Assembly: GCA_032718475.1 (NCBI GenBank)
Contig: JAUCBJ010000011.1
Location: 64,702 to 128,701 of the forward strand
Direction: 5' to 3'
Length of the DNA: 64,000 nt
Source of the DNA: Nemertoderma westbladi
Taxonomy: Eukaryota > Animalia > Xenacoelomorpha
Position numbers and translations under genes: made by a program. Position 1 is the first letter of the stretch; the number at the start of each line of letters is the position of its first letter. Below, piece after piece: positions 30,413-64,000 of the stretch. The notes below the pieces were generated by a model. That model had not been told where the DNA came from and ran no database searches. It worked only from the letters and a program-made list of their open reading frames with translations.

Positions 30413-30414
30413 TT

Positions 30415-39500: not shown

Positions 39501-39670
39501 TCAGTCAGTCAGTCAGTCAGTCAGTCAGTCAGTCAGTCAGTCAGTCAGTCAGTCAGTCAGTCAGTCAGTCAGTCAGTCAGTCAGTCAGTCAGTCAGTCAG
39601 TCAGTCAGTCAGTCAGTCAGTCAGTCAGTCAGTCAGTCAGTCAGTCAGTCAGTCATAGTCAGTCAGTCAG
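36581..39670. repeat. (TCAG)n microsatellite, ~3.09 kb, ~770 units
   Basis: Uninterrupted TCAG from 36581 to ~39655, then one imperfection near the end. Confidence 0.99.
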
Positions 39671-41832: not shown

Positions 41833-41840
41833 CCGCTCCC
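41833..41840 (-). promoter_or_regulatory. Short polypurine tract
   Basis: GGGAGCGG lies immediately 5' of the 3' LTR on the element strand. Confidence 0.6.
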
Positions 41841-42304
41841 AGAAAATGGGATTTATGTCTATAAAATATAACAAATCACAGTTTCTAAAATATAAAAAAT
41901 ACTCTAAACAGTTAGTCTTTCTTACGCAGACGGCGTTTACGCAGTTTTTTGAGGCTAGCAAGAGTCCTTTTCTCTTTGGGGGGAGCCACTTTACTAGGTG
42001 GGCTATAAATCCTGGGTGAAGGGTGCAATATGATTGCATCAGAAGGTGTAGGATTATGGTCGGGGTATCCGCTGTTTCGATATGCTTCTCCTCGAGCTGA
42101 TTTTCCTCCGCTCGTAGCTGGATACGTTCATCCAAAAACTCTCGCAGAGAATGGGGTTGTCTAAGTGCGATATATTCTTAGAGATTCTGGATTTCACAAT
42201 CGAACTGAGATAAAGACAATTCGTTTATCGCTTGGACTTGCTGTTACAACTTACGTTTATCTGAACAAACGTAAGTTTCCTTTCTGATCTTTGTAGAATA
42301 GCGT

Positions 42305-43441
42305 TTAACTCGTTTGGTACAACGTTCTCCGACACTCTGGTGACAGGTTATATCGTGTCAAGCCGGGATGATGGTAAGGGTTAAACGGCGATATTAAATG
42401 TCCGCGTCCCAATCCGGCTAGGTAGGATGGGCTAATATCTAAGAAACCCACAACTGGGGTGCCACCGACTAATCGTTCAGGTAACACTAGATCTTTGAGC
42501 AGTGAGTACAGCTCGGGAGGATCCGTCATACTAATAGGATCAAGAGTCTGAGGTCTCACTAGGGAATGAGGAGCTCTGATCGAGTATTCCGAAACTCTGA
42601 TCATTGGTTTATTTAAGGATCGTCTGAGTCGAACGAGCGTAGGTGATACATTGAACAAGTTTCGCTCGAAACTCCCGTAAGTATAGCGAGTAAAACCGTG
42701 TTCAAAGCAACGTCTCCGCGGATGTTTATGCCTTTCCGTTTGTTGGTTGGGTCTTGGGCATTCATCGCAATAATACCCAAAAACGTACGTCTTGTAGGGG
42801 AAACGCGAGTGATCTTTCTCCAGCTTACAATATTCCTCCATCCGTTCGAAGCTATTCGGTACAACAGGTAGCGGTCGATCGGCGGTAAGATACATCATAG
42901 GGGAATCGAGCCGTTTGAGTTCTACCATGCGGTCATGATGTATACCTTGAGGATATCGAGTTTCTAGATTTTGTTGACTGGCAATATTGAGATATGTTTC
43001 TATCAGGAATTCCAGATTATCGTTGAAGTCGCTGCGTTTATCCGGCTCCTCAACGTCTTCTCTTTCGAGTCTGTTTCGAATAGAATTCTCGTGTTCCATT
43101 CTCGGTTTATCGTTCCGCCTCCGCTGGGTAGGATATTTCAATCGTACCATTTCCCTTTTGGTGTCGACATTGTCCGTATCGTGTAAATCGATAGGATGAC
43201 CAGTAGTTAAGAAGTCCACATACGTACCATTACGATGCGCATAGCGAGCGGTGAATTTCTTATAGTCCAACTCACGCGTGAGCTGCTCTTGGGACATTGG
43301 CGGTTCGATATAACGATCATCGTCCTCCGCAGCAGTTGGACCAGCGTCGCCGTCAACCAGCGTCAAGCTATCAACAAACGCTTGTAAAGGTAGAGTATAT
43401 CGCTCCCTGATACCAAGATCATCTTCTATCAACTCAATCAT
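42305..43441 (-). CDS. Accessory ORF of BEL copy 1 in the env position; unknown 378-aa hydrophilic protein
   Basis: Intact ORF on the element's sense strand between pol and the 3' LTR. No signal peptide or TM segment is evident. It contains C-x2-C-x16-C-x2-H (CDEC...CFEH). Confidence 0.7.
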   Translation of the reverse strand: MIELIEDDLGIRERYTLPLQAFVDSLTLVDGDAGPTAAEDDDRYIEPPMSQEQLTRELDYKKFTARYAHRNGTYVDFLTTGHPIDLHDTDNVDTKREMVRLKYPTQRRRNDKPRMEHENSIRNRLEREDVEEPDKRSDFNDNLEFLIETYLNIASQQNLETRYPQGIHHDRMVELKRLDSPMMYLTADRPLPVVPNSFERMEEYCKLEKDHSRFPYKTYVFGYYCDECPRPNQQTERHKHPRRRCFEHGFTRYTYGSFERNLFNVSPTLVRLRRSLNKPMIRVSEYSIRAPHSLVRPQTLDPISMTDPPELYSLLKDLVLPERLVGGTPVVGFLDISPSYLAGLGRGHLISPFNPYHHPGLTRYNLSPECRRTLYQTS

Positions 43442-45062
43442 ATCTGCTATATAAATTTATCCATATTATAATGAGTTTATATTTAGGCGAGCGGGCGTCG
43501 CTGCCTACCCCAATCAGCCCCCGGACAGTGCGAGATCCTCAGCGCCGATGTGTTGTCGCCGCTGTACTTTCGCCAACGACGTAGCCGCACAACGACAACG
43601 ACAACCGGCACAAGTCACTCCACTGTCCGTCCCAAAGGCTTAGATGTACTTCAGGTTTTTCTTGGAGAGTTAGGTTACTTTCACGATTGCGACTAGCTAC
43701 TGTAAACACACTTTAGCAGTAACATTCACCTATAAACTCACAAATACCACACAACTGGTCACAACTACGCACATTCGGGCCATTTGTCCGTTAGTCAATG
43801 CCTTCCAGAATGTCACTGTATTATTATGTATCCTTGGATACTAGCAGTGCGCTATTTATTCCCTATGCTATTCAATGGGACAAGCTTTCTATTGTTCTTT
43901 TAACTCAATTCTAATTCTAGCGTGGTTGTTGCCATGGTGACATTATGCAAAGCTAGCGGTAGAATTAGGGTAATTCCAATGCATACAGATCTGGGATGTT
44001 ATTTAATAGTATTCTTTAATAGTCAATGTTCTGTTTTATACATGACTTTATGAATTTTATCGGCTATTGACTATGTTTGGGAGACTTTCGCACACTCATA
44101 TGCATAATAAGATAAATCTCCGCTCCCTTGATCTATTAATTAATGGAATTTTGGGAATGTTATACATTGCGTAAAAATGGCAATTTATTAAATTCATTAA
44201 AAGGCATGAATTTAAATTATTCCCTGAAATTTTATTATTTGATAATTAAATGGACATATTTTGATTCTAGAACATGTCTGGGGACACAAGATCCTTAATT
44301 CTATGACAATTGTCTTTTTAAGAATATCGGTAAATGCTACGATATCTTAATTGACTAGAATTGTTGAAGGATCTGAATTTTACAGATTTTGATTTATTAG
44401 ATTTGCAAATATTAAATAATTAATATTTGAGATGGGCACCGATTTATTCCAGAACTTGTCTGGGAACGTTAACCACTGATTCTAGAATTTGTCTTTCAAG
44501 TATATCGGTGGGTGCCGCGATATCTTAATCGACTAGAATTACAGATGGTCAAAGGGTTTAACAGATTTATTTTGCGTTATACGCTACTGTTAAAGGGACA
44601 TCACGCTACTATATGTATTATTTAATATACGGTATGAGAGCAATATCGCACGAAGCAATGTCAGTGTGAAGAGGCAAGTCGTTTCCAAGGTCTACCCAGA
44701 GCTTGGTTTAGCCGAGACACGAGGATCTGAACTTTGCATTCCTAATACTCTGCCTACCAATAATACTTTAATATAGTAGTGGCTTTATTGTACTTTAATA
44801 AGTACGGACATTTCATCTTACTGTAGTTACGTATTTATAATATAATACGGACAGTAAGGAAAGAGAAAAAATAATTATTTCTTCGCCGTCGCACTAAATA
44901 TAATATAAGTAATTACGTACGCAATAAACACGAATATATTGCACTATTCTACAAAATAATCGCTAAATAATATTCTACTAAATTAAATAAAACGATTATA
45001 ATAAAACTACATAGTAATACATACATAAATATAAAATAATAAAATAATATAAAATAATAGAG

Positions 45063-48000
45063 TCACACTGTCGGTTGAATTAGGGAAGTGGTCGTGGGAA
45101 GAGTTTCTTGTCTTCCATAGTTTCCGGAGAGCTCTCTGTCTCTTTCCAGTAAACATAAACGACCCACTGGGCGATTGAGCTGTTGAGTCTCAAAGACTAT
45201 CCCTGGTTTCTTAAAGTTACGCCGCATGACGACGAGCTCTACTGATCGCGCACCAAACCATCGCTCGAGATATGAGTCTCGATGATACGTCCTGTTTGCC
45301 ATCGCTTACGTGGGAGATCGGGGTCCACAATAAGCACCATGTCTCCAGCGCTGACGTTTTCTTGCTGCGCAAACCACTTAGTTCGAAGTTGTAGAGTGGG
45401 CAGGTAATGTTTCTCGAAATGGTCAGCGAAACGACGGGATAGCAACTGCATAAGTTGCCAGGTTCGACGGCAGTACTCGTCTCCGTCTGTGATCTCCGAT
45501 CGTGGGAGCATGGCTACGGGTTTCTTCAGTAGAAAGTGCGCGGGTGTTAGCGCTTCCAGGGAATCAGGACTTGAAGAGACTGGCATAAGCGGTCTTTCGT
45601 TGAGATAGGCGGCGATTTCCTCCATTAACGTCCGCAATAGTTCGTCGGTGAGATAAGCGCGACAAGGTACAATAAAGTGGAACGCAGTCTTCACGCTCCT
45701 AATCAATCTCTCCCAACTTCCTCCCCACCAAGGGGCGTCGGCGGCGTTGAAGGTCCAGCTAGACGCTGTTATCTTTAGCTGATCGTCCACCTGTCTTTTG
45801 TTCCAGTCCTTTACGTAAGCTTGAATTTCGTTGTTGGCGCCAATGAAGTTCGTTCCCTTATCCGATCTCATCGTGTTACTGGTTCCGAAACGAGCGATCT
45901 GTCGTCGTAAACTCAACACGAAGCTGTTGGTGGATAGATCGTTTACCATATCGAGATGGATAGCTCTACAAGTCATACAAACGAAGATGACACACCATCT
46001 CTTGACTATAGTCCGGGCACGATATACTTCAATAGGGCCAAATAAATCCACACCGGTATTAGTAAAGGGTGGTTCGTAGAAGCTTACTCTTTCCCTAGGT
46101 AATTCTGCCTCTCGCTGTGTCAAAGGCCTACTGAATGCTTTCCTACAGGGTATGCAGTTCCTAAGGACTTGGTTCAGAGCCCTACGGGGTTTATAAAAAT
46201 AGTAGCGAGTTCGAATTTCGCTCAGAACTCGTTCTCTTCCCGCATGATACAGTTTGCTATGAACATCTACAATCATCTTGATTTGTATGTCAAGATTTCT
46301 AATGAGTATGGGAAACTTAGTGTCAAAGGATAAGGGGGCGTTGGTGAGCCTGCCTCCAACACGTATTAACCCATCTATCATGGTACTAGAGAAGCGATCC
46401 CTTAAGCGCATCTGCGGATTTCTTAACAACAGGAAATACTTATCAGGATCCTCATAGCATTGTAGGAGTCTCAGCATCTGTTTGTTGGTTTCATCATGCT
46501 CCTGGTAACTGATCTTCTCCTTTAGAAACCTGTCGGATATCTTGTATTGGGGAAGGTCTTTAACAATATGGACTCGTGCAGATGTTGATGGAGCATCATC
46601 ACTATTGGTCTTTGTCCCAAAGTAACGATGATGAAAACATCGTTTTAAATAGGTGACGGCTTTGCAGAGCCGATTCCAGGTGCTGTAGTGACATATCGCT
46701 CTCTGCAAGAGGGGTGAGAGTCCTTGTGCGATATCTGGTATTCCAGATTTCCAATCCTTGTCACGGATTTCCAAGACTTCTTTAGTCGTGGTGGTGGGTT
46801 TCTGATCCAAAGCATCCTCTCCGGAAGTAAATAATACAGATAGATCAACCGCAGGTTTAAACAACTTCGATTTACTCGCTCGAGTTTTGGGTTTAACTTT
46901 CTCCGCTCCCTTGGCCTGTCTGATCTCTGCTGTTGTGAGATGGGGAGGCCATTCTTCTTCTTCTTTGTAGAGAAAGTCGGGTCCACCTAACCATTCGGGA
47001 GTATTTACCAATTCCTTTGGAGTCGCTCCTCGGGAAGCGATGTCTGCTGGATTAATCGTTCCGGGGCAATGTCTCCATTGGTCCATCGTCGTGCGACTAA
47101 GTATGATGGCTACCCTGTTGGTAACGAAGACGCTGAACTGACAGACTTCATTGGTTATATACTCTAACACGAGTAAAGCGTCGGTCCAATAGACAGTTTT
47201 CTCTAATGGATATTCAATCTGTTCTGTTACATTCCGGCCGATGGCTGTAGCGTATAGAGCCGCTTTTAACTCCGCTCGAGGAACTTTCAACTTGTTGTTG
47301 ATTAATGCCTTAGAAGTAACCAAGGCGACTTTGATTCCATCCGGAGTTTCCACTCTTAGATAGGCTACTATACCTATTCCCATATCGCTGGCGTCTCCAA
47401 ACACATGGAGTTGATAGGAATACGTAGGGAGAACATGACCAAAATATGAACGGGAAATTATAAAATCCTCGATAGCCGGCAGAGAATCTTCCCATTTCAT
47501 CCACTTCTTCAATAATTCTCCCTTAAGTGGATCGTCCCATGAGTGGTTTTCAAGCCATATTTGTTGTACCAAACTACGAGCAATCAATATAACTGGGCTA
47601 ATAAATCCCAATGGATCGAAATAAGTGCTCAGTATACTTAAGCAAATCCGTTTGGTTCGAACTGGATTATCTCGCTGTTTTAGCTGGAAAAACAGAATAT
47701 CTCGCTCTGTGTCCCATTTCAAGCCGAGTGTCTTGGTTTCTGGCAGATCATCTTTGATCAAATCTAGATCTTTCGCCCCTCGATCTTCTGCAGGGATCGA
47801 CTCCAGAAACTCACGGGAGTTGCTGGTGAATTTTGTTAATCGAAACCCACCTCTTTTTAAGCACTCTACCGTTCCTTTAGCGACCTCAATGGCTTCCTCA
47901 ACTGATGGGAGGGACTTCAGATTGTCGTCCATGTATATGTCTCTCTTGATGTTGTCGATCACTTCCTTAGAGAATGCCTCTCGGTTGTCCTCTGCAGTAG

Positions 48001-49411
48001 TACGCACTACCGAACAGGCGTTGGAAGGGCTTGAGATTATCCCAAAGGCCTGGATGGTCATCCAGTACTCCACCGGTTTCTGGTTGAGGTCTCCTTCGGG
48101 CCACCACAGAAATTGTAGACTATCTCGATCCCTATCTAGCACCTTGACTTGTAAGAACATGCCTTCTATATCGGAGGCGAAAGCAATCGAATATTGTCTC
48201 AATCTTAAAAGAATTCCCAACAAAGATTGAAGTAAGTTGGGTCCGGGTAACAATTCAGAGTTAACTTCATGTGGTTTACCGGGTTTAGGAACGTAATGGT
48301 GAGTTAAGTAATACGTTCTTTCAGTCACAGGTGTTTCTTCCGGTACTCTCTCCGCGTATCCCTTACTAATAAATTTCTCCAGCTGCGTTTGATACATTGC
48401 TTTAGCTGAAGAATTAGCCGTAAGGCGTCGATGGAGTTGCGCGATTCTTTTTTCCGCCAAGGGTCTGTTATTGATGAACTTCGGTTCTCTCTTGCGGAAA
48501 GGTAGACCGACTTCATACCTACCTTGATCTTTGAGAAAACGTGTAGTTGTCTCTTGGATCTGCTTGGCCCTTTCCTCTTCCACCGACAAGGCTTTATCGT
48601 AGGAATTGGGCTCTACCGCCTCTTGCGTAAAGAATCTTACGGCATGTTCATCTCGAGTCTTGGCGTTACAACGCTCAATGACGTCATTTAACTCGTCGTT
48701 ATAAGCTTCTCGTTCAGTTGGATAAAGAAGTTGACATAAGTTCACTTGGTTTTGCCAAGCCTCGTTTTCCTTAAGGAGATCGATGATATTCTCCTCATCA
48801 AAAAGCTGGTGAATGTCGTCGTTATCTGAGGAGTATGGGGTTCCCTCAGTTAAATCGTCTCCCTCACTAGTATCATCTTCCCATTCACTCACCTGGTAGA
48901 CGCGCTCTTGCGGTAGTCTTTCTCTGAGTGTTCTACGGGAAGGGCCAGTAAAGTACCAACCTACTCTAGTTCTTACCGCATAGGTCTGTAGTGGCTGCGG
49001 TTGAGCAGGCCGTTTCTCCAATGTCTCCAGCGCCTCATGCGCGTTTTGGCCGATGAGTATTTGCACTCCAGGATAATCAGTCTGGAATCGAGGTATCTTA
49101 AGATGTTGGATGCTCTCATCCTCGTCCCAATTATAAAGGTCTGCTTGAGTAGTAACGAAGTTCTTTATAGCCACCATTTTCACCGACCTTATGCTATGTT
49201 CTCCTAGTTCGTCTTGTGGGGTGGACAACGCGCCTATATAATAATCAGCTGTTACTGTAGATTTCCAAACTTGCATAATGCCGGACATGTTTAGCTTAGT
49301 TCGGAACTTGGGTTGTCCAACGAAGATGTCTTCGGCTAGTTCTTTATCCATGAATGTTCCTGTGCTGCCGGAGTCCAGGAGGGCGTTCACTATATCGCTT
49401 GCGTCCTTCTG
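45063..49411 (-). pseudogene. BEL/Pao pol (aspartic protease, RT, RNase H, integrase), with lesions
   Basis: 'ALLDSGS' protease; RT 'GPNLL', 'SDIEGMFLQV' and 'YMDD'; RNase H 'LHVFGDAS', 'PRAEL' and 'WTDA'; integrase H-x3-YH...CIPC, 'GVDLFGP', 'SDKGTNF' and 'GGSWERL'. A 2-bp insertion at ~45247-45251 shifts the 'GLVR|SVEL...RPVGRLCLLE' tail, and the 'RVVFD' block before 'NSELLPGPNL' is missing. Confidence 0.95.
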
Positions 49412-50647
49412 GGCTCCTCCCCGAGGCGCACCCATGAGGCGGACGCTGTCCCACTACCCTTGGGGCCAGTCCGACTCCGTTTTTATCAGACCGGGCCGGA
49501 GGGTAGCCCGATGCTTCCCGGGTTCACTTTTCAATCCCCCGATCACACCGGCACAGCTCGTCGGTGTAGCCAGATGGTCGGCTACTGTCAACTTACTGTG
49601 GCCTGACTGTACATTGAGCCAACTCAGAGAGTCAACCGGCGGGTGGACCAGTCGATAGCGATCGAGCATCAAGGTCGCCCTTGAGCCAAACCGACGGTCT
49701 TGTCCCAAGCGGGCTTGCGCTACCCACATGGAATATTGACCGTTTTCACCCGCCTCGCCGGCAGTATTGAGGGGAAGTCGGTTCCGCAAACAATACTGAC
49801 TAGCTCGAAAGCTAGGAACAAGTAACCACTTACCAGTCACTGTACACGTGTACTCAACAGATGTTCACAATATCAAGTACACTACGGTAAACACAAAATC
49901 TGACGCATACCAGAGGACATAATCGGGGAAGACAAAATCGGTGACAAAATCAGAGGGGACAAAATTGTATCGACTAATAAAAAGTCAAGAGTACTTTATT
50001 TTACCGACAGGGTAAAATAACTTTGTGTGCACAAAGTATGCTGGGGCGCAGTAAAATATGGTCCTACTAATAACCGGCGGCGACTGAACCAACCGGCAAG
50101 GTTTCCCACACTCACTCGCAGTGGCCATACATACACTCACGTATACCACGTACACACACAAACCACAGATTCCAGAGTATCATTCACTCGGACCACACTA
50201 CAACACCAACCCCTCCTTGCAGCCGATATTCCGGGTGCCACCTCCATTCCAATAGTAGTACCAACAGAATCATCAGAACCTGTCCATTCCGATGCAACAC
50301 CTCCATTCCAATAGTGCTACCCTGGGAAAAAACACGCTTTGGCAACCGATCGGAGACAGTACAGAGTCTGGTCAACTCATACATACCAAACATAGACCTA
50401 CCACATAAACCACATAAACCACAGATCACACTAAGCCACCACCCCTACTGTGTACAGGACTGGCAGTACGGCAACAGGCCGACTAGACGGTACCACGGCA
50501 CCATGTTAATTCATGGTTCGCTAGACACGAGGGCCTTCAGTAACTCCCTTGCACTATACTCAGGATTTAACGTGCCCCCAGACCCTCACGAGTCCGCCGC
50601 CGCCTGTTAGAGCCACCCCTATAGAGACCTCACCTCTTTGGGTAGCT
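49412..50647. mobile_element. Unclassified 1236-bp insertion with 6-bp TSD interrupting gag-pol
   Basis: CTTCTG is duplicated at 49406-49411 and 50648-50653. Removing the insert and one copy restores the in-frame 'VVQLRVHGPQK|DASDIVNALLDSGS'. Confidence 0.88.
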
Positions 50648-52225
50648 CTTCTGAGGTCCATGGACCCGTAACTGGACTACAGGAAATTCTCGGATTCCTA
50701 CATTGGAAGTTGGTGCTTTCCACGATGGTTGTCGCTCAGAAGTAGTTAGAGTGAAGTCGTTGTCTGTATCCTTTTCATATGTGAGTGCTCGATACACTGC
50801 GGTATTTATCATGTAACAGGATTCGTTTTCGTCGGAGAACTCGTCTGTATAGAATCCTTCCATCTCAGATTGATCAGTGTCGTTCACATCACTGAATTGG
50901 ACATGTAGCTCGGAATCACTTACCTGATTCGGACTATTTCGCTCGAATTCAGCGTGCAACAAGATATGATGCTTCGCACCACACTTTGCACACCTTATGT
51001 CAGAGAAACAGGTACGCCGTTGGTGTCCTTGTCTGAGGCAATTATAACATAACCGCTTATCCCACATGACTTCGCGTCTCTCCGTTAATGACTTCTTCAG
51101 GAATTCATCACACATATTCAAACGGTGGGTCCCGTCACACAGCGCACATTTCGGTTTGATGTTACTTACCTTATTTTGAGTCACATTGTGTACACTTGCC
51201 TTTTCTTCGGGCTTTCTCACCGGAATTCTCTTGGGAGATGTGGGAGGAGTTTTTCTTACCTGTTCTCTCCTGTCATTTGCTCGAGACTTGAATTTACTTA
51301 CCTGATCTTTAGGCATTTTATTGACATAATAAGATCTATCAGTGTCTTTCCCGCTATCTTCTCCTTGAGAAGTCTGGCTTTCGCCGTCGTCTGTATAACA
51401 CACTGGTGTTACCTTTCTCCTAGAGACGGGTTTTTCACTTACCTTGTTTTCCGGTGTCTTCTCTCTGGACAGTTTCAGGAGCTGTAATTTCACTTCTCCA
51501 TCTAGGAATGACATGAGATCAGCCATGGTAGGGTCTCGTCGTTGTTGTTCCATCATATATAACACTTTCTTATCCCAGCGTGTACCTACTCCACCCTTCG
51601 GTAAAGTAGAAGCCACTGCTCTAATAACCATAGCATTCTGATACTCCTGAGACTTACCTAGCCAATCTAATTGTCTACAGATCTCCTGAATCTCATCGGA
51701 AAACTCGATAATTCCGCTGCTAATAAACTTTCGGGGCGCTACCAATTTTGCATACAAATACCCAGCGATGTTATTCCTATTACCATACCTGATGTTTAGT
51801 GTATCCCAAACTTGTCTTAATCCGTCTGGATGTCCAATAAACTTTAACGCCATTAACTTGGGAGATCCTTCCAAGCACTCGATGAGGTATCTAAGTTTTT
51901 CTCCATTAGATAGTACAGAGTTCTGTATGTTATCTTTGTAATATTCATTAAAAGGTAACCATTTCATCTCATCTCCATTGAACTTGACGATCTCTCCCAC
52001 CTTTACCGCTTGCCGGGCTTCGGTTCTAGCCATTTGACGCGTAAAACTTTCTTGGGCCATCGTGTTATTTAATATCGAGTTATCGGTATATAAATTTCTC
52101 GGATTATGATCAGTTCTATAGGGAATGTCATTATCAACAAGTCTATAATTACCCTTAATAGGGTTCACTATAGGAGTTTCTACTTCGCTAGCAGTATATG
52201 CGTGTAGGCTCCACACCTTGCGCAT
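50648..52225 (-). CDS. BEL/Pao gag core (DUF1759-like capsid region, zinc knuckles), originally continuous with pol
   Basis: 'KFNGDEMKWLPF...EKLRYLIECLEG...WDTLNIRYGN' capsid-like region, then CALCDGTHRLNMC, CYNCLRQGHQRRTC and CAKCGAKHHILLH, the three-knuckle BEL signature. Confidence 0.93.
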
Positions 52226-54377
52226 GAGATACTTCAGACCTAACAGGTTGACACATTGTTACAGGGGGTGGTGGTATACCCCTTTGTGTATTTACTAATT
52301 TATCGCGTTCTAGCGCGATACTTTGCTGCACTTCTTGCAACTCAAGCCTACTTTCCCTTACTGTGCCCTTGAATTGCTGAACCGTCTCCTGCATCTGCCC
52401 GAGCAGGAGATCCATCCCCCGCCGTCTCTCGTCCACCCATTCGACCGCCGAAGCGGGAGTCGCCAACGTTGTAGCGAGCGGACGAGGGACAACGGGCGAC
52501 AAATCAGGAATATTTCGCTCGGGGTCCAGGACCTGAACTGTCTCCTGGGCAGTTCTACGGGGCACAGGTAGCTTAGTGCTATGCAGAGGGAATTTAGAGG
52601 TAGTTTCAGGGAGCACAGGTGTGTCTATCACCGAAGGGGTGATTTCAAGAACAGGCCTAATTATTTCAGGCTCATCTACTATAGTAGGGAGTCTTTCTAT
52701 TTTAATTATTTGGTCTGTGGGCTCTGTACTACCTAAGTTGGTGTTATTTAGTTGCCTTCTAACAGCTGGAGGCAAATCAGGCAATTTCTGACGGTGGAAT
52801 GTTCTTTTACGTCTGCTTAGACGAGATCTATTTCCTTTGCCTTCAGTATCGGTGGTATCGCCTTCCTCAGATGATGTATATCCCTGTCTTTTGGGAGTAG
52901 ATCGATTCATCATCTGCATATTACTAGCTGCTAACTGTTTATTTATGCAGTCTTGATTCTCCTGAATGTTTTCCAATTCTAATTGGGTGGTTTCTTCAGC
53001 CGCTTTCCGTTCTGCTTCTGCCACTTTTGCCTCTGCCGCTGCCTCTGCCGCTGCCTCTGCCGCTTTTGCCTCTGCCGCTGCCTCTGCCGCTTTTGCCTTG
53101 GCCGCTGCCTCTGCCGCTTTTGCCTTGGCCGCTGCCTCTGCCGCTTTTGCCTTGGCCGCTGCCGCCTTTCTTTCTGCTTCTGCAGCTACCACTGCTGCTT
53201 TCTTTCTGTCTTCTATACGTTTTTTCTTTACTTGTTCTTCTTGGACTCGTGTGATGCGGAGTTGTTCATCAAATTTAGCCTGATTCGCAGCCCTCATTTC
53301 CACATCGATGGCATCCAACACAAGCTTGGTTCCTTCACTATTAGGGCTAAGTCCCTCTAACCTTCTCCTCAACTCGTCATCACCTAAAAAACGTTGATAG
53401 TCTGACAGATAGATGTCAATGGCATCCCTCTTATGCGGTTTCTCTGCCGTCGCTTCACTTTCCACTTGGGAAAAAGTAGCGTCTGTTGATTCTCCATGGG
53501 TTGAGCGCTCCTCTAGCTGAGCTTTCCACTGAGCTGTTCCTTGAACCTGGAGACTCAACCTTTGAAACCAAGTCTTTACGGCAACTTGCAACGACGTGTC
53601 TTGTCTTCGTTTAGAAGCCTCCTCAAAGGCCGATAATATTAGCCTGATTCGTAGAATTCTTTCTCTAACTTGATAAAGCAGTTGTCCCTGCTCTTGAGGT
53701 CCTTGTGGTTGTTGAAACAGTTGTCCTTTTACTCGCTCCATAGAGCTGAAGAATCCCTGTGCGTATCCGGCTGCGGACCTCTTCCACACAGCTGGATCTA
53801 TGGTTTCCTTGGCTACTCCCATCCGGTGTATGTCTTCCCAGGCAGCTTCTGATAAATCAAACGGGAGTCCGGGTCCGGGGAAGTTCCATTGCGACTCGAC
53901 AATAGACTTCAGTTCTTCACTCGTGTATCCCGCATAATTATCTTTAGTTGATCGTTGACTTCTCGCCCAATCGATCTGGTGTTCTTCCACTGCAATCAAT
54001 AACCTAGTGAGTACGGCTGCAGGAAGGATGAGAAGGGGATCCGAATAAACCGCATCCATCATCTTTGCTCCGCGTTCTGGTGTCAGTTCTACAGTATCCT
54101 CACTACTGGAGCTGTTGGGCCGTTGAGAAGTAAGTTCTTGGCTCGCGGGTTGTTGCTGTTCTGCTGCTTCTTGGTCCCGCTTGACCTGAGCTCGAGTGCC
54201 TATGATAGACCTACGATGTTGGACCAGCCTAGGTTCTGTTATTACTACAGGAGGGATGACCTTCCTCACAGTGGGAGGTGAACTGAACTTACGACTAGAC
54301 GGTTCTACGCCTCTATCTGAGTCGCAGATAGTTACATCTAATAAACTGTCTGACAGGTTCTGCTTAGTATCAGACAT
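52188..54377 (-). CDS. 729-aa N-terminal ORF of BEL copy 1 (coiled-coil, Ala/Lys/Glu repeat), offset +1 from gag
   Basis: Long ORF directly upstream of and overlapping gag. It is conserved as an open frame in copy 2 (62140 onward) and contains (AAAKAKAAE)n repeats. Confidence 0.85.
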   Translation of the reverse strand: MSDTKQNLSDSLLDVTICDSDRGVEPSSRKFSSPPTVRKVIPPVVITEPRLVQHRRSIIGTRAQVKRDQEAAEQQQPASQELTSQRPNSSSSEDTVELTPERGAKMMDAVYSDPLLILPAAVLTRLLIAVEEHQIDWARSQRSTKDNYAGYTSEELKSIVESQWNFPGPGLPFDLSEAAWEDIHRMGVAKETIDPAVWKRSAAGYAQGFFSSMERVKGQLFQQPQGPQEQGQLLYQVRERILRIRLILSAFEEASKRRQDTSLQVAVKTWFQRLSLQVQGTAQWKAQLEERSTHGESTDATFSQVESEATAEKPHKRDAIDIYLSDYQRFLGDDELRRRLEGLSPNSEGTKLVLDAIDVEMRAANQAKFDEQLRITRVQEEQVKKKRIEDRKKAAVVAAEAERKAAAAKAKAAEAAAKAKAAEAAAKAKAAEAAAEAKAAEAAAEAAAEAKVAEAERKAAEETTQLELENIQENQDCINKQLAASNMQMMNRSTPKRQGYTSSEEGDTTDTEGKGNRSRLSRRKRTFHRQKLPDLPPAVRRQLNNTNLGSTEPTDQIIKIERLPTIVDEPEIIRPVLEITPSVIDTPVLPETTSKFPLHSTKLPVPRRTAQETVQVLDPERNIPDLSPVVPRPLATTLATPASAVEWVDERRRGMDLLLGQMQETVQQFKGTVRESRLELQEVQQSIALERDKLVNTQRGIPPPPVTMCQPVRSEVSHAQGVEPTRIYC

Positions 54378-55755
54378 GTTTATGTGTACAGTTGAATGTC
54401 TACTGCTGTATTACAGTCTGAGCAAGTCTAGTAACTCAGTATTAACTGCTAGCCTAGTAATTAATTACCGGTACTGCTACTCAGTGTAGCGTGATATATA
54501 TAATATATTAGAATACCGGTATGATTATAGTATATATAACTATTATTACAGACTAGGTTTATCACAGAATACCGGTATAATTTTAGCACAAATATATATA
54601 AATATATAATAGGCCTATCGGGAATACCGGTATACAGCTTACAGTTTTGTAGTATATATAATTATAATTCTGGACTAGAATTAATTATAAAGTACCGGTA
54701 TAGTTTCAGCCTAAATTTATAGAAATAAAGATAATAGGCCTATCGTAAATACCGGTATATCAATTATTTTAAATAATTGAATTTCTGAATTTTAGGGTTA
54801 CTTGGTTACTTTACTTACTTTATTACCGCTATTTGAGCAGTAGTCCAACTGATATTGAGACCTAATGGTTGTATGGTAGGCCTACTATTTATAAATCGTT
54901 AGATTTGATTTATAATATATATATACCCGTTTTAATGGGTTTTGTCAGTATTTGAAATAAATGTTATTATTTCTGGGGGGTAATCACTACACAAAGCGGT
55001 ACGCTTTCAGTGAAGTGTTACTTATAGGACACTAAAACAAATAATGCTAATTTACCTAAGTTACTTAATACTACAAATTACGTACAATTCGGGTGAGATT
55101 ACAATCTCTAAATAAACACAAAAATTTACAAAAAACACAAAATACGAATTTTCAGGGTAATTTTACAAGAAGTCTACAAACCAGCCTAACAAAGGGTTAG
55201 AAATCTGGTTATTACAACGGACAGGGTACTACGGTATTTGAAAATAATAAGTAGTAGTAAAATACACTGCGTTGTCCAGATAGGAAAATACCACCGCCTG
55301 ACGACCTATAGCCGTATCGCTATAGGTTCTACGTTATGTATCACAGAGTGTTCCTACCTAGAAATTAATAGAGCTAATCGAACGTGCCTATCAACCACTT
55401 TACAATACAAATATAATGCCTACACTAATTACTTTCGGAAAGCACTGTACACTAAACCCTGAATTAGGTACGAGTACTTGTACACCAGATAATCAGTAGT
55501 TAAATATACTTGAACAGCTAAAAGAACCACGGCATCTGCTGGAGTGACCGGTGCACAAAATCACCAGTCTTTACCTACGCCAAGCAGCCCGTGTAGTACC
55601 GGGGTTAATTTAACTATAGCGGTATGTATAACAAACATAATTACTGTAGGAACAAACTTGGGGAATGAATGTTGCGAATAATTGCATAAACTCTGAATAA
55701 TAAATATTACGCTACGCGTACAAACTACTCAAACAAAATGCAGACCAAATACTGA

Positions 55756-56270
55756 CAGACTACTATCAAGCCTAAATAAACTACAGGACATGCAGACTCC
55801 GAAATGATTAGGTAGTATGCGTTCTAACCCAGTAGTACGACTTATTCTTTAGATGGGGGTTTACCTTACAGCTTTGGCTGCCCCTACTTCCTAACCGTTC
55901 TTTATCGGACAGAGGCTCTACACACACTGAAATCCTTCAGACCTAATAACAGCCAGACAACTATCCAGCCTACAAATTATCTAAATAAATATTATACGCT
56001 ACCTGTACAGACTACACAAACAAAGTACAGACTAAACGATGGCAGACTACTCTCAAGCCTAAATAAACTACAGGACATGCAGACTCCGAAATGATTAGGT
56101 AGTATGCGTTCTAACCCAGTAGTACGACTTATTCTTTAGTTGGGGGTTTACCTTACAGCTTTGGCTGCCCCTACTTCCTAACCGTTCTTTATCGGACAGA
56201 TGATCTACACACACTGCAATCCGTTCAGACTTAACAGCAATCAGACAACAGCTCAGCCTACAAATTGTCT
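55756..56270. repeat. ~287-bp tandem duplication in the BEL 5' UTR
   Basis: Units start at 55756 and 56043 (CAGACTACT.TCAAGCCTAAATAAACTACAGGACATGCAG...). The same duplication is present in copy 2 (~60265-60775). Confidence 0.85.
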
Positions 56271-56612
56271 GTACAATCTGATCAGGCTTACACGCCTTCT
56301 GTTCAATACTGGCCTACAAACAAATAAAACTTGACAGAAATAAGTAAAAATCTCAATAAAAAACCAGGGCTGCAGTCCCTGATTAATTAGTAAGGCCTAC
56401 CGGTATATAATTATCAAAATCGAATAATACTGCTGTACCTATACTGCTGTAGGTACCGGTCCGGATGATCAGGCAGTCAGGCCTACTGGTTACCGATCGA
56501 CCGGTACTTTCGACTAGATTGCTTACACCGCAATCCAGAAGCAATATCTGTTATTGTTCTTACCAGAACAATATTAAACTGTATTTAATGCCTACACTGC
56601 AATACAGACTAA

Positions 56613-56623
56613 ATATCCGTTAT
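56613..56623 (-). promoter_or_regulatory. Non-tRNA primer-binding-site position of copy 1 (ATAACGGATAT), complementary to LTR segment 57351-57361
   Basis: It abuts the 5' LTR, lacks TGG, and is a perfect 11-bp inverted repeat of 57351-57361. Confidence 0.7.
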
Positions 56624-57791
56624 TGTTCGCGCTTTCAGACCTTTGGCAGTTTAACCCGCCAAATTAGGATGTCTTCTAGATAATAATTCGCTTTTAGCCT
56701 ATGACAAGTATTTGATTCACTACACTAGTCGAAACCAATCTGTGCACGATCATTCACCCGCTGGATATACCCGGGAGATTGGGTTCGACGGCTTAATCGT
56801 ATTGCTATGTAGGCCTAATGTATTATTCGACTGACAGTATTATATAATCTCTGACAATATTATTCACCTTCGGGAAATATTAACAGTTCCTTTAGGACGT
56901 GGCGCTCTACCTATATAAACAGAGTTATGACTTAAACTACTCACAACGATATGGCTTAGTTATAATTCACATATATGGCGCATTCTTTAGGAAATGCTTC
57001 GTTATCAGTCTCACTCATACACAATGCTGCACAATACTGCACACTGATCTGCCGATCTTCACTGATTTTAGTCACATATAAAAGGAACACGGACCGAATC
57101 ATGTAGGGTCTATCAAATAACATTAGATTCACTTCAAACCACTTTAACATAAGTCACAATCGTTATATGTAACCTTTCTCTCTTACCTTCGGTATATCAA
57201 GAATATTGGGTTTTCGGGGTTATTTATCGTTATTCCAAATATAATAATTCATCAACCATATTATGAAGAACTGACAGTAAATAGCAGTATAACAATATAA
57301 AAGTATGCACAGGTTGTTTGATTAGGTATGGTATGTTATGTTTAGATATGATAACGGATATATGTCCTTATAATTAAGCCTACTAGTGTAAGACTAAAAA
57401 CTGGAAACACGGAGGTGCCAAAAGCCGGTTCTTAGGCTCTGGGCAAAAACATAACACTGAACCGATAAGAATAATCTTATTTACAAAGGCTTCCACCCAC
57501 CACAGAGAAAGAGCATACAGATAGGAAAATTCAGTTCAGTAGATCTGTGATAGGTCGAAATCAAAATCAACTCAAATCCTATTGGCAGATACAGAAAGCA
57601 GGGCTGTGGGGCAACTTTCCCAAGCTGGTTGGACAATCAAACGTAGCCCAGATCCCTTCGCACAGCAAATCAGCCAATCAGCCGGTAGCTTGCGCTATTC
57701 GAGTTATAGATCCCTTTTTAGAGTATTCCAGCGCCTGGGGGGAACTGGTTAGCAAGGCAAACGAATCAGTTATCCCACAAAAGCTTTTACA
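56624..57791 (-). repeat. 5' LTR of BEL copy 1
   Basis: 1168-bp direct repeat of 40665-41832, upstream of the ORFs on the minus strand. Confidence 0.97.
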
Positions 57792-58350
57792 AGTCCCAAT
57801 CCCAATAAACATTAACTTGGTCATTTTGGCGGCCAAAATTACCAAAATGGCCAAGTAAAAACTGCGGTATTCATGAAAGGAACTGCTGAGGCACGTTGGC
57901 TTGTCAATCACAGCCAGTGAATACAGGCTGAGTGTTAGTAAAGCCCAGCATGTTGGCGCTGAGGTAGAGTTCTGAGGTAGAGTTCTCTCTACCTTTAGGT
58001 AGAGAGAAAGGCTCCAGTGTAGTAATGGCTGGGCTCGCCACTGTAGTAAACAACATGCCCGTAAGAGTGCAGTGTGAGGCGCCCTAACTTATTATTTTCT
58101 ACATATTTTTTACTAATCTAATAATTAACACACCTTTACCTGTCACTTAGGTTAAAAAGCAGTGTGCTAGCACTTGCAGCGTAATAATTAATTATTTACT
58201 TTAATTCTATTTGATTGGTATTAAAAATAACAAGTTCATATATTTAATTTGTAAAAATTCTTTAAAATATGAGAAAAGTACTTTACATAGATTTTTCTTT
58301 ATTTAGCTGTTTAGTACGCTATAATATAAATGCTCTCATAAATACAGTTA

Positions 58351-58600
58351 GGGGGGGGGGGGGGGGGGGGGGACTGGACGCAATAAAAATGCATCACTCT
58401 CTAGGGGAAATTTGACGCAAATAATAGATGATTACTCTCAAAAATAAAACTGTAATGTTCATTTATGTTTAATTTATTGTTTTGGTTAAAATAACGTGCC
58501 ACTATAACCTGCTCCTTTCCCTAAATTGAGAATTTAACATTGAGGAGGGATATTAATTCGCCAAGGCGAGTTTTGCGTCCAGTCCCCCCCCCCCCCCCCC
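58351..58600. mobile_element. Small MITE-like element with poly-G/poly-C TIRs
   Basis: G22-ACTGGACGCAA ... TTGCGTCCAGT-C17 inverted ends. Confidence 0.6.
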
Positions 58601-58749
58601 TTGTCTCGATAAATAATAATTACATCATCATAAATTCACCCAAATATGCCGACTCTGTTGACTGTTAGCACAGAGCCAGAGCCTGATATTATATTGTTTT
58701 CAGTTACTATCGCCCTCGAATTCAGACCCAGCTACTAGAAATAGGCCGC

Positions 58750-59982
58750 TGTAAAAGCCTTTGCTGAATTGCCCCGTTATTTTTATTATCTTTTACATTA
58801 AAATACTCTGTAGTTGATTTAATAAGTGTAAGAGACCGTATTATTGCTGTATCGGTGTTTTTAGAGGATCTAAGACCTATTTCCTCCGTATGTGTACTGT
58901 GAAAGGCATATTTTATGATTCTATGGCAATTCGTGACGCAAAGGGGTGATAGCTACTCTTGAACAGTAGTTACTATGACTACGGTTAACAGCTGACATTC
59001 ATACGTGTTGATTTCCTTTGTTCTACGGCGTCTCTCAGTTCAGTCAGCCAATGAGAGCGTTTTTGTGGCTCCTTGTACAGAAAATTTCCGAGAAATGACG
59101 CAATGCCTATGTGCAGTGTTTACATTCAGTCCTGAGCCTAAGAAAGAACGGCTTGGAAGTATTTTGTGCCTTACTGTTTTTGGTCTTACACTAGTAGGTT
59201 TAATTATAAAGGGCATATATCCTTTAACATACCTAAAGACTACTGCTAACTGATCATACATCCTGACTGCTGAAACATTGCAAACTCGTAACAATCAGTG
59301 TTCAGTTGTTGTTTTATACTGCTATTTACTGTCAGTTCTTCATAATATGGTTGATGAATTATTATATTTGGAATAACGATAAATAACCCCGCAACCCAAT
59401 ATTCTTGATATACCGAAGGTAAGAGAGAAAGGTTACCAATAACGATTGTGACTTATGTTAAAGTGGTTTGAAGTGAATCTAATGTTATTTGATAGACCCT
59501 ACATGAGTCAGCCTGTGTTCCTTTTATATGTGACTAAAATCAGTGAAGATTGGCAGATTAGTGTGCAGTATTGTGCAGCATTGTGTATGAGTGAGTCTGT
59601 TAAAGAAGCAATTCCTAAAGAATGCGCCATATATGTGAATTATAATTAAGCCATATCGTTGTGAGTAGTTTAAGTCATAACTCTGTTTATATAGATAAAG
59701 CGCCACGTCCTAAAGGAACTGTTAATATTCCCGAAGGTGAATAATATTGTCAGAGATTATATAATACTGTCAGTCGAATAATACATTAGGCTTACATAGC
59801 AATAAAAATTAAACCGTCGAACCCAATCTCCCGGGAATATCCAGCGGGTGAATGGTCGCGCACGGATTGGTTTCGACTAGTGTAGTGAATCAAATACTTA
59901 TCATAGACTAAAAACAGATTTAATATCTAGAAGACATCTTAATTTGGTGGGTTAAACTGCCAAAGGTCTGAAAGCGCGAACA
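58750..59982 (+). repeat. 5' LTR of BEL copy 2 (~1233 bp)
   Basis: TGTAAAAGC...GCGCGAACA ends match copy 1. The 3' ~670 bp is highly similar, while the 5' ~380 bp is not alignable by eye. Confidence 0.85.
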
Positions 59983-59994
59983 TTAAAGGATATA
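59983..59994 (+). promoter_or_regulatory. Non-tRNA primer-binding-site position of copy 2 (TTAAAGGATATA), complementary to LTR segment 59216-59227
   Basis: It abuts the LTR end and is a perfect 12-bp inverted repeat of TATATCCTTTAA at 59216-59227. Confidence 0.7.
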
Positions 59995-62139
59995 GCTTCT
60001 TTATTGCAGTAAGCAATAAAGTCGAAAGTACCGGTCGACCGGTAACCAGTCGGCCTGACTGCCTGATCATCCGGACCGGTACCTACTTCCGTATAAGTAC
60101 AGCAGTATTATTCGATTTGATTATATATGCCGGTAGGTCTTAATAATTAATCGGGGACGCCTGGTTTTTATTGGGATTTTACTTAGGCCTATTTCTGTCA
60201 GTTTTATTTGTTTGTAGGCCAGTATTGAACAGAAGGCGTGTAAACCTGATCAGATTGTACAGACAATTTGTAGGCTGAGCTGTTGTCTGATTGCTGTTAA
60301 GTCCGAACGAATTGCAGTGTGTGTAGAGCACTTGTCCGATTAAGTACGGTTAGGAAGTAGGGGCAGCAACGCTGTAAGGTAATCCCCCAACTAAAGAATA
60401 AGTCGCACTACTGGGTTAGAGCGCATACTCCCTAATCATTTCGGAGTCTGCATGTCCTGTAATTTATTTAGGCTTGAGAGTAGTCTGCCATCGTTTAGTC
60501 TGTACTTTGTTTGTGTAAGTCTGTACGGGTAGCGTATAATTTTATTTAGATAATTTGTAGGCTGGATAGTTGTCTGGCTGTTATTAGGTCTGAACGGATT
60601 GCCGCGTGTGTAGATCATCTGTCCGATTAAGTACGGTTAGGCAGTAGGGGCAGCGAACGCTGTAAGGTAAACCCCCAACTAAAGAATAAGTCGCACTACT
60701 GGGTTAGAGCGCATACTCCCTAATCATTTCGGAGTCTGCATATACCGTAGTTTGTTTAGGCTTGATAGTAGTCTGTCAGTGTTCGGTCTGTATTTTGTTT
60801 GAGTAGTTTGTACGCGTAGCGTAATATTTATTATTCAGAGTTTATGCGATTATTCGCAACATTCATTCCCCAAGTTTGTTCCTACAGTAATTGTGTTTGT
60901 TATACATACCGCTATAGTTAAATTAACCTCGGTACTACACGGGCTGCTCGGCGTAGGTAAAGACTGGTGATTTTGTGCATCGGTCACTCCAGCAGATGCC
61001 GTGGTTCTTTTAGCTGTTCAAGTATATTTAATTACTGATTATCTGTTGTACAAGTACTCGTACCTAATTTAGGGTTTAGTGTACAGTGCTTTCCGAAGTA
61101 ATTATTGTAGGCATTATATTTGTGTTGTAAAGTGGTTGATAGGCACATTCGATTAGCTCTATTAACTTCTAGGTAGGAACATTCCGTGATACATAACGTA
61201 GAACCTATAGCGATACGGCTATAGGTCGTCAGGCGGTGGTATTTTCCTATCTAGACAACGCAGTGTATTTACTACTACTTATTATTTCAAATACCGTAGT
61301 ACCCTGTCCGCTGTAATAATCAGTTTTCTAACCCTTTGTTAGGCTGGTTTGTAGACTTCTTGTAAAATTACCCTAAAAATTCGTATTTGTGTTTTGTAAA
61401 ATTTTGTGTTTAGTTAGAGATTGTAATCTCAACCCAAATTGTACGTAATTTGTAGTATTAAGTAACTTAGGTAAATTAGTATTATTTGTTTTAGTGTCCT
61501 GTACGTAACACTTCACTGAAAGCGCACCGCTTTGTGTAGTGATTACTCCCCAGAAATAATAACATTTATTTCAAACATTGACAAAACCCACTAAAACGGG
61601 TATATATATATTATAAATCAAATCTAACGATTTATAAATCGTAGGCCTACCATACAACCATTAGGCCTCAATATCAGTTGGATTACTGCTCAAATAACGG
61701 TAATAAAGTAAGTAAAGTAACCAAGTAACCCTAAAATTCAGAAATTCAATTATTTAAAATAATTGATATACCGGTATTCTCGATAGGCCTATTATCTTTA
61801 TTTCTATAAATTTTGGCTGAAATTATACCGGTACTTGTAATTAATTCTAGTCCAGAATTATATATACTACAAACTGTAAGCTGTATACCGGTATTCCGAT
61901 AGGCCTATTATATATTTATATATATTTGTGCTAAAATTATACCGGTACTCTGTGATAAACCTAGTCTGTAATAATAGTTATATATACTATAAGCATACCG
62001 GTATTCTAATATATTATATATATCACGCTACACTGAGTAGCAGTACCGGTAATTAATTACTAGGCTAGTAGGTAATACTGAGTTACTAGACTTACTCAGA
62101 CTGTAATACAGCAGTAGACATTCAACGGTATACATAGTC

Positions 62140-64000
62140 ATGTCTGATACTAAGCAGAACCTGTCAGACAGTTTATTAGATGTAACTATCTGCGACTCAG
62201 ATAGAGACGTACCACTGTCTGGTCGTAAATCCAGTTCACCTCCCACTGTGAGGAAAGTCATCCCTCCAGTAGTAATAACAGAACCTAGGCTGGTCCAACA
62301 TCGTAGGTCTATCATAGGCACCCGAGCTCAGGTCAAGCGGGACCAACAAGCGGCGGAACAGCAACAACCCGCTAGTCAAGAACTTATTCCTCAGCGGCCC
62401 AGCAGCTCCAGTAGTGAGGATACTGTAGAGCTGACACCCGAGAGCGGAGCAGAGATGACGGATGCGGTTTATACGGATCCCCTTCTCATCCTTCCTGCAG
62501 CCGTGCTCGCTGGATTATTGATCGCGGTGGAAGAACACCAGATCGATTGGGCGAGAAGTCAACGGTCAACTAGAGATAGCTACGCGGGCTACACTAGTGA
62601 AGAACTGAAGTCTATTGTCGAGTCGCAATGGAACTTCCCCGGACCCGGACTCCCGTTTGATTTATCAGAAGCTGCCTGGGAAGACATACACCGGATGGGA
62701 GTAGCCAAGGAAACCATCGATCCAGCTGTGTGGAAGAGGTCCGCAGCCGGATACGCACAGGGATTCTTCAGCTCTATGGAGCGAATAGAAAAGCAACTTT
62801 TTCAACAACCTCAAGGACCTCAAGAGCAGGGATCGCTGCTTTATCAAGTTAGAGAAAGAGTTCTGCGGATTAGGCTAATCTTATCCGCCTTTGAGGAGGC
62901 TTCTAAAAGAAAACAAGACACGTCGTTGCAAGTTGCCGTAAAGACTTGGTTTCAACGGGTGAGTCGCCAGGTTCAAGGAGCAGCTCAGTGGAAAGCTCAG
63001 TTGGAGGAGCGCTCAACCCATGGAGAATCAACAGACGCTACTTTTTCCCAAGTGGAAAGTGAAGCGACGGCAGAGAAACCGCATAAGAGGGATGCCATTG
63101 ACATCTATCTGTCAGACTATCAGCGTTTTGTGGGAGATAAAGAGTTGAGGAGAAGGCTAGAGGGACTTAGCCCTAATAGCGAAGGAGCCAAACTTGTGTT
63201 AGATGCGATTGATGTGGATAGGTTAGCGGCGAACCAAGCTAAATTCGATGAACAACTCCGCATCGCTAGAGAAAGGGAAGAACAAGTAAGGAAAAAACGT
63301 ATAGAAGACAGAAAGGCCGCAGCAAAAGCAGAGGCAGAGGCAAAAGCGGCAGCAGCAGAAGCAGCGGCAGAAGCAAAAGCGGCAGTAGCAAAGGCAGAGG
63401 CAGAGGCAAAAGCAGCAGAAGCAAAAGCGGCAGTAGCAAAGGCAGAGGCAGAGGCAAAAGCAGCAGAAGCAGCGGCAGAGGTAAAAGCGGCAGCGGCAGA
63501 GGCAAAAGCGGCAGCAGCAGAAGCAGAACGGAGAGCGGCTGAAGAGATCGCCCAACTGGAGTTGGAAACGCTTCAAGAGAAGCAAGACGACTTCAGTAAA
63601 CAGTTAACAGCTAGTAATATGCAGATGATGAATCGATCTACTCCCAAAAGACAGGGATATACATCATCTGAAGAAGGCGATACCACCGATACTGAAGGCA
63701 AAGGAAATAGATCTCGTCAAAGCAGACGTAAAAGAACATTCCACCGGCAGAAATTGCCTGATTTGCCTCCAGCTGTTAGAAGGCAACTAAATAACACCAA
63801 AGTAGGTAGTACAGAGCCCGCAGACCAAATAATTAAAATAGAAAGACTCCCTACTATAGTAGATGAGCCTGAAATAATTAGGCCTGTTCTTGAAATCACC
63901 CCTTCGGTGATAGACGCACATGTGCTCCCTGAAACTACCTCTAAATTCCCTCTGCATAGCACTAAGCTACCTGTGCCCCGCAGAACTGCCCAAGAGACAG
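62140..64000 (+). CDS. N-terminal ORF of BEL copy 2 (partial, runs off the window)
   Basis: ATG TCT GAT ACT AAG CAG (MSDTKQNLSDSLL...) at 62140 is homologous to 54377-52188. It is absent from the ORF track, consistent with no stop before the window end. Confidence 0.88.
   Translation, partial: MSDTKQNLSDSLLDVTICDSDRDVPLSGRKSSSPPTVRKVIPPVVITEPRLVQHRRSIIGTRAQVKRDQQAAEQQQPASQELIPQRPSSSSSEDTVELTPESGAEMTDAVYTDPLLILPAAVLAGLLIAVEEHQIDWARSQRSTRDSYAGYTSEELKSIVESQWNFPGPGLPFDLSEAAWEDIHRMGVAKETIDPAVWKRSAAGYAQGFFSSMERIEKQLFQQPQGPQEQGSLLYQVRERVLRIRLILSAFEEASKRKQDTSLQVAVKTWFQRVSRQVQGAAQWKAQLEERSTHGESTDATFSQVESEATAEKPHKRDAIDIYLSDYQRFVGDKELRRRLEGLSPNSEGAKLVLDAIDVDRLAANQAKFDEQLRIAREREEQVRKKRIEDRKAAAKAEAEAKAAAAEAAAEAKAAVAKAEAEAKAAEAKAAVAKAEAEAKAAEAAAEVKAAAAEAKAAAAEAERRAAEEIAQLELETLQEKQDDFSKQLTASNMQMMNRSTPKRQGYTSSEEGDTTDTEGKGNRSRQSRRKRTFHRQKLPDLPPAVRRQLNNTKVGSTEPADQIIKIERLPTIVDEPEIIRPVLEITPSVIDAHVLPETTSKFPLHSTKLPVPRRTAQET

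Follow-up and report, generated by a model that had tools for sequence, protein, structure and literature searches.

A BEL/Pao retrotransposon of Nemertoderma westbladi with a primer-binding site complementary to its own long terminal repeat: a candidate for self-priming

Two BEL/Pao copies and the sites adjoining their LTRs

The 64,000-nt stretch of Nemertoderma westbladi DNA analysed here (contig JAUCBJ010000011.1, positions 64,702 to 128,701; hereafter the window) contains two copies of one long terminal repeat (LTR) retrotransposon family in head-to-head orientation (Table 1). Copy 1 is complete, and copy 2, which starts at about position 58750 on the (+) strand, is cut by the window end and is 92% identical to copy 1 over its internal part. 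By its proteins the element belongs to BEL/Pao: Gag carries DUF1759 and three Cys-His boxes, and Pol has protease, reverse transcriptase (RT), RNase H and integrase in that order, with Pao peptidase and DUF5641. Pao peptidase, DUF5641, integrase zinc domain and DUF1759 were found by Pfam on copy 1, and LTRs with TG...CA ends, a target duplication and a polypurine tract (PPT) are also present. All 120 matches listed for the RT-RNase H region carry PF05380 (Pao peptidase) and, where named, come from aquatic animals and Schistosoma; the nearest proteins (up to 43% identity) are those of cnidarians, echinoderms, fish, molluscs, tunicates and Schistosoma. The RT of copy 1 is probably defective, since its N-terminal part has about 14-15 residues fewer than that of most relatives.

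An earlier note on this DNA had claimed that neither copy carries a transfer RNA (tRNA)-type primer-binding site (PBS), beginning with TGG, after its 5' LTR, and that the sequence found there is complementary to a segment of the element's own LTR. Both statements were borne out when the LTR end of copy 1 was placed by its 3' LTR and the target duplication GGACT, and that of copy 2 by alignment to copy 1. The first TGG lies 58 nt (copy 1) and 179 nt (copy 2) past the LTR end, and the strings adjoining the LTR, 11 nt in copy 1 and 12 nt in copy 2, are exact reverse complements of segments of the respective LTR. No tRNA genes were found in the window by ARAGORN, and no Rfam families in 40000-64000. 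Alignment further confirmed that the two LTR segments occupy homologous columns and differ at 2 of 11 positions, both differences being mirrored in the PBS. As had been noted, the 3' end of the segment pairs with the first PBS base next to the LTR, giving a priming geometry. The loop between primer and PBS, earlier given as about 730-755 nt, measures 727 nt in copy 1 and 755 nt in copy 2, and the TATAA-like motif reported close upstream of the segment (TATAAG in copy 1, TATAAA) is conserved in both copies, starting 11 nt before it.

Table 1. Coordinates of the two retrotransposon copies and their parts within the window
Feature	Position	Strand	Remarks
Copy 1, complete BEL/Pao LTR retrotransposon	40665-57791	(-)	17,127 bp, TG...CA ends
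Copy 1 PBS	56613-56623	(-)	11 nt, reads ATAACGGATAT; exact complement of LTR segment, no spacer after LTR
Copy 1 candidate primer segment	57351-57361	(-)	LTR nt 431-441; exact reverse complement of copy 1 PBS
Candidate primer segment in copy 1 3' LTR	41392-41402	(-)
TATAAG motif, copy 1	57367-57372	(-)	starts 11 nt before segment
Second, degenerate LTR end and PBS in copy 1 leader	56544-56559	(-)	one mismatch to copy 1 LTR
Copy 2 PBS	59983-59994	(+)	12 nt, reads TTAAAGGATATA; exact complement of copy 2 segment, no spacer after LTR
Copy 2 candidate primer segment	59216-59227	(+)	exact reverse complement of copy 2 PBS
Copy 1 5' LTR	56624-57791	(-)	1168 bp
Copy 1 3' LTR	40665-41832	(-)	1168 bp; 99.83% identity to 5' LTR, 2 differences
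Copy 2 5' LTR	58750-59982	(+)	1233 bp; start placed by 9 terminal bases common with copy 1
Target-site duplication GGACT, upstream copy	57792-57796	(-)	5 bp, copy 1
Target-site duplication GGACT, downstream copy	40660-40664	(-)	5 bp, copy 1
Purine-rich tract at PPT position	41833-41840	(-)	adjoins copy 1 3' LTR
Copy 1 gag open reading frame (ORF)	50630-52258	(-)	DUF1759 and three Cys-His boxes
Copy 1 pol ORF	45239-49453	(-)	protease, RT (YMDD), RNase H/Pao peptidase, integrase, DUF5641
Interruption between copy 1 gag and pol	49454-50629	(-)	about 1.2 kb
Copy 1 ORF1	52188-54410	(-)	740 aa stop to stop, Ala/Glu/Lys repeat; overlaps gag frame
Copy 1 extra ORF between pol and 3' LTR	42305-43456	(-)	383 aa, env position
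Copy 2 ORF1	62107-63999	(+)	runs past window edge

The strings are short and AT-rich, and the copy 1 leader holds local rearrangements, as would suit a chance match or a one-off inverted duplication of DNA. Against such an origin, the LTR contains a complement of only 31 of 71,978 background 11-mers and 8 of 71,976 12-mers (4e-4 and 1e-4), none of 300 random internal positions matched the LTR at 11 or 12 nt, and the chance that two changes fall on the same two of 11 columns with the correct letters is about 0.002. Predicted duplex energies were -12.0 and -10.3 kcal/mol for the matched pairs and -6.0 kcal/mol when PBS and segment were swapped between copies. With the RNA starting 0-10 nt before the segment and ending 15 nt past the LTR, the helix formed across the long loop with a mean probability of 0.95-0.98. 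In both copies, pairing extends with bulges beyond the core, and the TATAA motif lies within sequence able to pair with the leader beyond the PBS.

During general LTR replication, the primer is copied into the next PBS in plus-strand synthesis, so that changes in an LTR-derived primer would be mirrored in the PBS; this would also account for the observation that, of the two sites in copy 1, only the LTR-proximal one matches its LTR. An LTR variant exactly complementary to the degenerate leader PBS occurs among the contigs of sequencing runs X3 and X4.

The two LTRs are alike only in their 9 terminal bases and from about 110 nt before the segment onward. Identical columns number 43/50 across the segment, 33/50 and 10/50 in the next two blocks, and then 44-50/50. 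The unrelated upstream parts comprise 57400-57791 in copy 1 and 58750-59130 in copy 2; since both types occur among the family contigs, swapping of the U3 region within the family is suggested. A strong GTAAG donor-like site is kept in both LTRs 3' of the primer segment (57186 (-) and 59419 (+)), with no strong acceptor until about 1.3-1.4 kb past the LTR; it could give a spliced mRNA lacking the PBS.

Self-complementary sites in related elements

Using an alignment of 32 Pol proteins as the query, we collected 27 related loci in genome contigs and 71 in metagenome contigs, one of the two locus scans having kept the best 80 of 610 matches. The 27 genomic loci (L001-L027) are BEL/Pao elements in contigs of prokaryote genome assemblies, probably host DNA, and the loci altogether appear to be animal DNA within microbial assemblies. 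Identical LTR pairs with target duplications were seen in a Wolbachia chromosome record (L024) and in a 1.1-Mb contig (L017). The exact LTR-end pattern of the window element gave 0 matches in metagenome contigs, and no relative was found among viral contigs.

In 15 loci the LTR end was fixed by a second LTR, 6 of them being TGG-type and 9 not. Seven of the nine non-TGG loci match their own LTR over 10-12 nt across a GT-AG junction, that is, where the exon end before a GT donor is joined to the exon start after a pyrimidine-rich AG; one matches directly over 11 nt and one with a mismatch. Each match was attained by 0 of 300 random internal positions, and none of the six TGG loci has a self-match. 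When the rules were applied unchanged to a held-out set, 11 of 41 loci gave a junction match of 10-15 nt (nulls 0/40 each), a figure that includes two near-copies of earlier loci and L098, whose 11-nt match was counted as chance because it groups among TGG elements and lacks AWTAAA. Direct held-out matches of 10-11 nt in L001, L032, L045, L062, L075 and L086 were not counted, as their LTR ends could not be placed.

A uniform rerun under slightly wider rules covered 42 elements; the LTR or PBS was missing or not placeable in 58 of the 98 loci, and L056 duplicates L054. The rerun yielded 24 junction elements, 4 direct-match elements (both window copies, L004 and L085), 9 tRNA-type elements (8 TGG plus L095, TGG-type by second-LTR placement) and 5 without a class, 4 of which lack most of the LTR. 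In the junction elements a match of 10-16 nt arises only once a predicted GT-AG intron within the LTR is taken out, with 3-9 nt from the first exon and 4-8 nt from the second; nulls were 0/200 for 22 of the 24, and 1/200 and 3/200 for the other two. Donors read GTRAGN in 19/24, AWTAAA follows the acceptor in 20/24, and TATA-like motifs were found in 5/24. One junction-type element (L068, 7537-8077) has an LTR ending in TA rather than CA with its target duplication intact. A splice junction was rejected as the source of the primer in the window copies, whose best junction matches were 0 and 8 nt.

The earlier note had proposed that related copies be checked for the same complementarity. The direct form of it was present in 4 of 42 elements, 24 of 42 had it only across a junction, and the 9 TGG-type elements had no self-match. 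Altogether, 28 of the 42 placeable elements are self-complementary at the PBS position versus 0 of 9 of the TGG type, which supports the self-priming reading, as far as sequence can. Junction self-pairing recurs in about 17 separate groups of relatives, a pattern that a DNA event cannot produce; together with the low background and the mirrored changes, it makes a chance match or inverted duplication extremely improbable.

The same set bears on whether synthesis is primed by a small host RNA, such as a tRNA half or fragment, with the LTR match acting as an RNA switch that hides the PBS. Half-tRNA priming does exist in Ty1/copia lineages, according to the available portion of PMC6317226. A host primer would hold the PBS constant, whereas the window sites differ at 2 of 11 positions and the 24 junction elements carry 20 different paired strings, each fitting the LTR junction of its own element and seldom that of another (10 nt was attained in 19 of 552 cross pairs, 17 of them among near kin). 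Moreover, the TGG-type relatives, which have a host primer, show no self-match. A host small-RNA primer is thus quite unlikely. We regard as very unlikely a purely structural role of the pairing in packaging, dimerisation or translation control, with priming elsewhere or by a protein. The bulged pairing beyond the core would fit such a role, and DNA synthesis from the segment is, in our model, a prediction. Yet the distance from the LTR end to the paired site is 0-5 nt in each of the 24 junction elements and 0 in both window copies, with no other primer site there; this counts against a structural role because minus-strand synthesis must start at that position to preserve the LTR end.

In a tree of RT-RNase H plus integrase, built without L011 and L018, all nine TGG elements fell outside a group comprising the window element, the junction and direct types and the Schistosoma proteins. 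That placement of the window element had a support of 84 on a long branch, in a set with no named clade references.

A proposed priming route and the evidence weighed

We propose that the window element primes reverse transcription with the LTR segment of its own RNA, folded back from the 5' copy, and put the probability of this at roughly 75%; self-priming in some form is highly probable. Transcription would start in the 5' LTR a short distance before the segment, and the segment would pair with the PBS by folding back. The element's RNase H, if Tf1 is a guide, would then cut immediately 3' of the segment and leave a 3'-OH adjoining the LTR end, from which RT could produce a strong-stop DNA of 727-755 nt for transfer to the 3' LTR copy. 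Plus-strand synthesis would then copy the primer into the new PBS. In the junction relatives, host splicing of the 5' LTR copy is predicted to build the primer segment, so that the PBS copied from it equals the spliced joint. The intron could be inherited from the unspliced 3' LTR copy because the cut, where strong-stop DNA ends, lies downstream of the intron; splicing of the 3' LTR copy as well could give direct-match elements. On the best reading, the window family represents the form without an intron, its loop being of unusual length.

In three DNA runs from organism A the family is highly repeated, and one run from organism B also contains it; run X5 was treated as DNA, its RNA nature being a guess, and two contigs with other PBS letters and without an observed LTR partner were left out of the counts. 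In 4 of 4 runs the family contigs cease to match copy 1 a single base beyond the 3' end of the segment, a place where copies 1 and 2 diverge from each other as well. In run X1 depth was 152,507 at 57350-57352 versus 1,324 at 57344-57346, with loose ends at 57350. The break at 57350 is where the model places the end of strong-stop DNA, which is a hint at most, as these are contigs and the compared stretch ended only 15 nt further.

The TATAA motif admits another form of self-priming, from the 3' LTR copy. Here the motif would be the true promoter, transcription would start just after the segment, and the segment would lie in U3 near the RNA 3' end, the cut being made on the same or a co-packaged RNA. 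TATA boxes stand about 30 nt before the start, which would put the window start just past the segment; the motif and its position are conserved in both copies, and the long loop would no longer be odd. Nevertheless, the cut would presumably remove the 3' repeat required for strand transfer on that molecule, the motif's ability to pair with the leader in both copies may make it structural, and the relatives' TATA-like motifs lie 36-142 nt upstream of the donor, placing the primer in the 5' copy. We therefore consider priming from the 3' copy unlikely. The idea that TATAAA serves as a poly(A) signal, with the RNA ending at the segment, was rejected: the motif reads TATAAG in copy 1, and few contigs carry the longer variant.

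Several observations weigh against fold-back priming from the 5' copy. Within the window family, the direct covariation evidence consists of two copies. The predicted helix was lost in both copies once at least 20 upstream bases were included, and in copy 1 also when the leader duplication was included in folding; for a 30-nt stretch of the copy 1 leader, pairing with another part of the LTR was stronger (-20.3) than pairing with the segment (-17.9). Lying 11 nt before the segment, the TATAA motif would be too near to act as a TATA box were the segment the RNA 5' end. Downstream of it, neither AATAAA nor ATTAAA was found in a form common to both copies, so that the R region was not located. 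The window loop far exceeds the 23-216 nt of the relatives (23 of 24 junction elements; one of 360 nt is unchecked). The splice rules were written after the first LTRs had been viewed, and several LTR ends were set by eye. Finally, a tree joining the window element to five TGG elements was 10.4 log-likelihood units higher (p-AU 0.69); because this topology was not rejected, the tree does not decide between intron loss and a separate origin of self-priming in the window family.

For the wider set of elements, we consider it probable, if a little less so than fold-back priming in the window element, that a large and widespread aquatic BEL/Pao branch has given up tRNA priming and takes its primer from its own transcript, mostly after removal of an LTR intron. 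Splicing would then license reverse transcription and the intron would be kept via the unspliced 3' LTR copy, the window family being intron-less or of separate origin, with a strong-stop DNA of >700 nt. If this holds, a third LTR superfamily has evolved self-priming, many animal elements make use of it, and annotation tools relying on a tRNA site would overlook or wrongly score these elements. Control by tRNA fragments that target the PBS may also fail against them. A primer formed where two exons meet would link reverse transcription to splicing and account for the survival of an intron in an LTR that is copied through RNA.

Further features and comparison with known systems

ORF1 is 87% identical between the two copies, with 43 synonymous and 35 non-synonymous codon differences over 380 codons, synonymous change being in excess for its site count. 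It had 0 matches among 1.84 billion representative sequences and may be a fast-evolving Gag N-terminus. The 383-aa ORF of copy 1 carries a small Cys/His cluster, and no relatives were found in a search that covered near lengths only. The interruption between gag and pol, possibly a nested insertion, holds a 178-aa ORF on the opposite strand (50074-50610). The 2.2-kb leader from PBS to ORF1 contains a 287-nt tandem duplication plus shorter repeats (55699-56270 and 60261-60839). Elsewhere in the window are a 2349-aa ABCA-type transporter at 23378-30427 (-), in a single uninterrupted frame that is unusual for an animal gene of this family, a PPP1R35-like ORF at 9383-10441 (+), two RT fragments at 2099-2836 and 32830-33588 (-), and a 3-kb array of near-perfect 52-bp tandem repeats at 36581-39671.

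Among known elements, the window element resembles the Sinbad/Sailor-like aquatic lineage of BEL/Pao in its Pao peptidase, DUF1759, DUF5641, three Cys-His boxes and domain order. It departs from the BEL/Pao profile of the International Committee on Taxonomy of Viruses (PMC8742986), which gives an 18-nt tRNA-Arg or tRNA-Gly site and a genome of 4.2-10 kb: the window element has no such site, is 17.1 kb long and carries two ORFs without found relatives. That profile describes BEL/Pao replication as tRNA-primed and poorly understood. The text of the Sinbad paper (PMC554778) is without the words tRNA, priming or self, and those of three BEL/Pao surveys (PMC3118150, PMC6238403 and PMC8556966) are without primer, PBS, tRNA or self; the available portions of PMC3601003, PMC8220671, PMC8293314 and PMC13524379 contain nothing on self-priming in BEL/Pao. 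In keeping with the earlier note, which knew of no such description, we found no title or abstract opening on self-priming or a spliced primer in BEL/Pao, in a search that had most subscription journals and Repbase notes outside it.

In the available portions of PMC6317226, PMC7175516, PMC4600332 and PMC6934838, self-priming is reported for Tf1/sushi and Tcn1 elements and predicted for copia elements of the TAR lineage. The closest likeness is to Tf1/Tf2 of Schizosaccharomyces pombe, Tj1, Tf1/sushi and Tcn1 (Ty3/gypsy), in which, as far as those portions of PMC7175516 and PMC4600332 go, a tRNA site is absent, some 11 nt adjoining the 5' LTR are complementary to the element's own LTR RNA, and cleavage 3' of the paired stretch would release the primer. 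The window element shares the self-complementary PBS and the absence of a tRNA site; however, it belongs to another superfamily and lacks the proteins of Ty3/gypsy chromoviruses, so that it would work like Tf1 without being a member of Tf1/sushi. In the TAR lineage of Ty1/copia (Houba, Osr-1), self-priming is likewise predicted from complementarity between PBS and LTR (PMC6317226, same portion), suggesting that it arose more than once, since these elements lie outside Ty3/gypsy. Unlike the window element, the TAR elements are plant copia with integrase before RT, where the window element has its integrase motifs after RT and RNase H. Self-priming in the TAR elements is a prediction only, and that portion of PMC6317226 mentions no splice-built primer.

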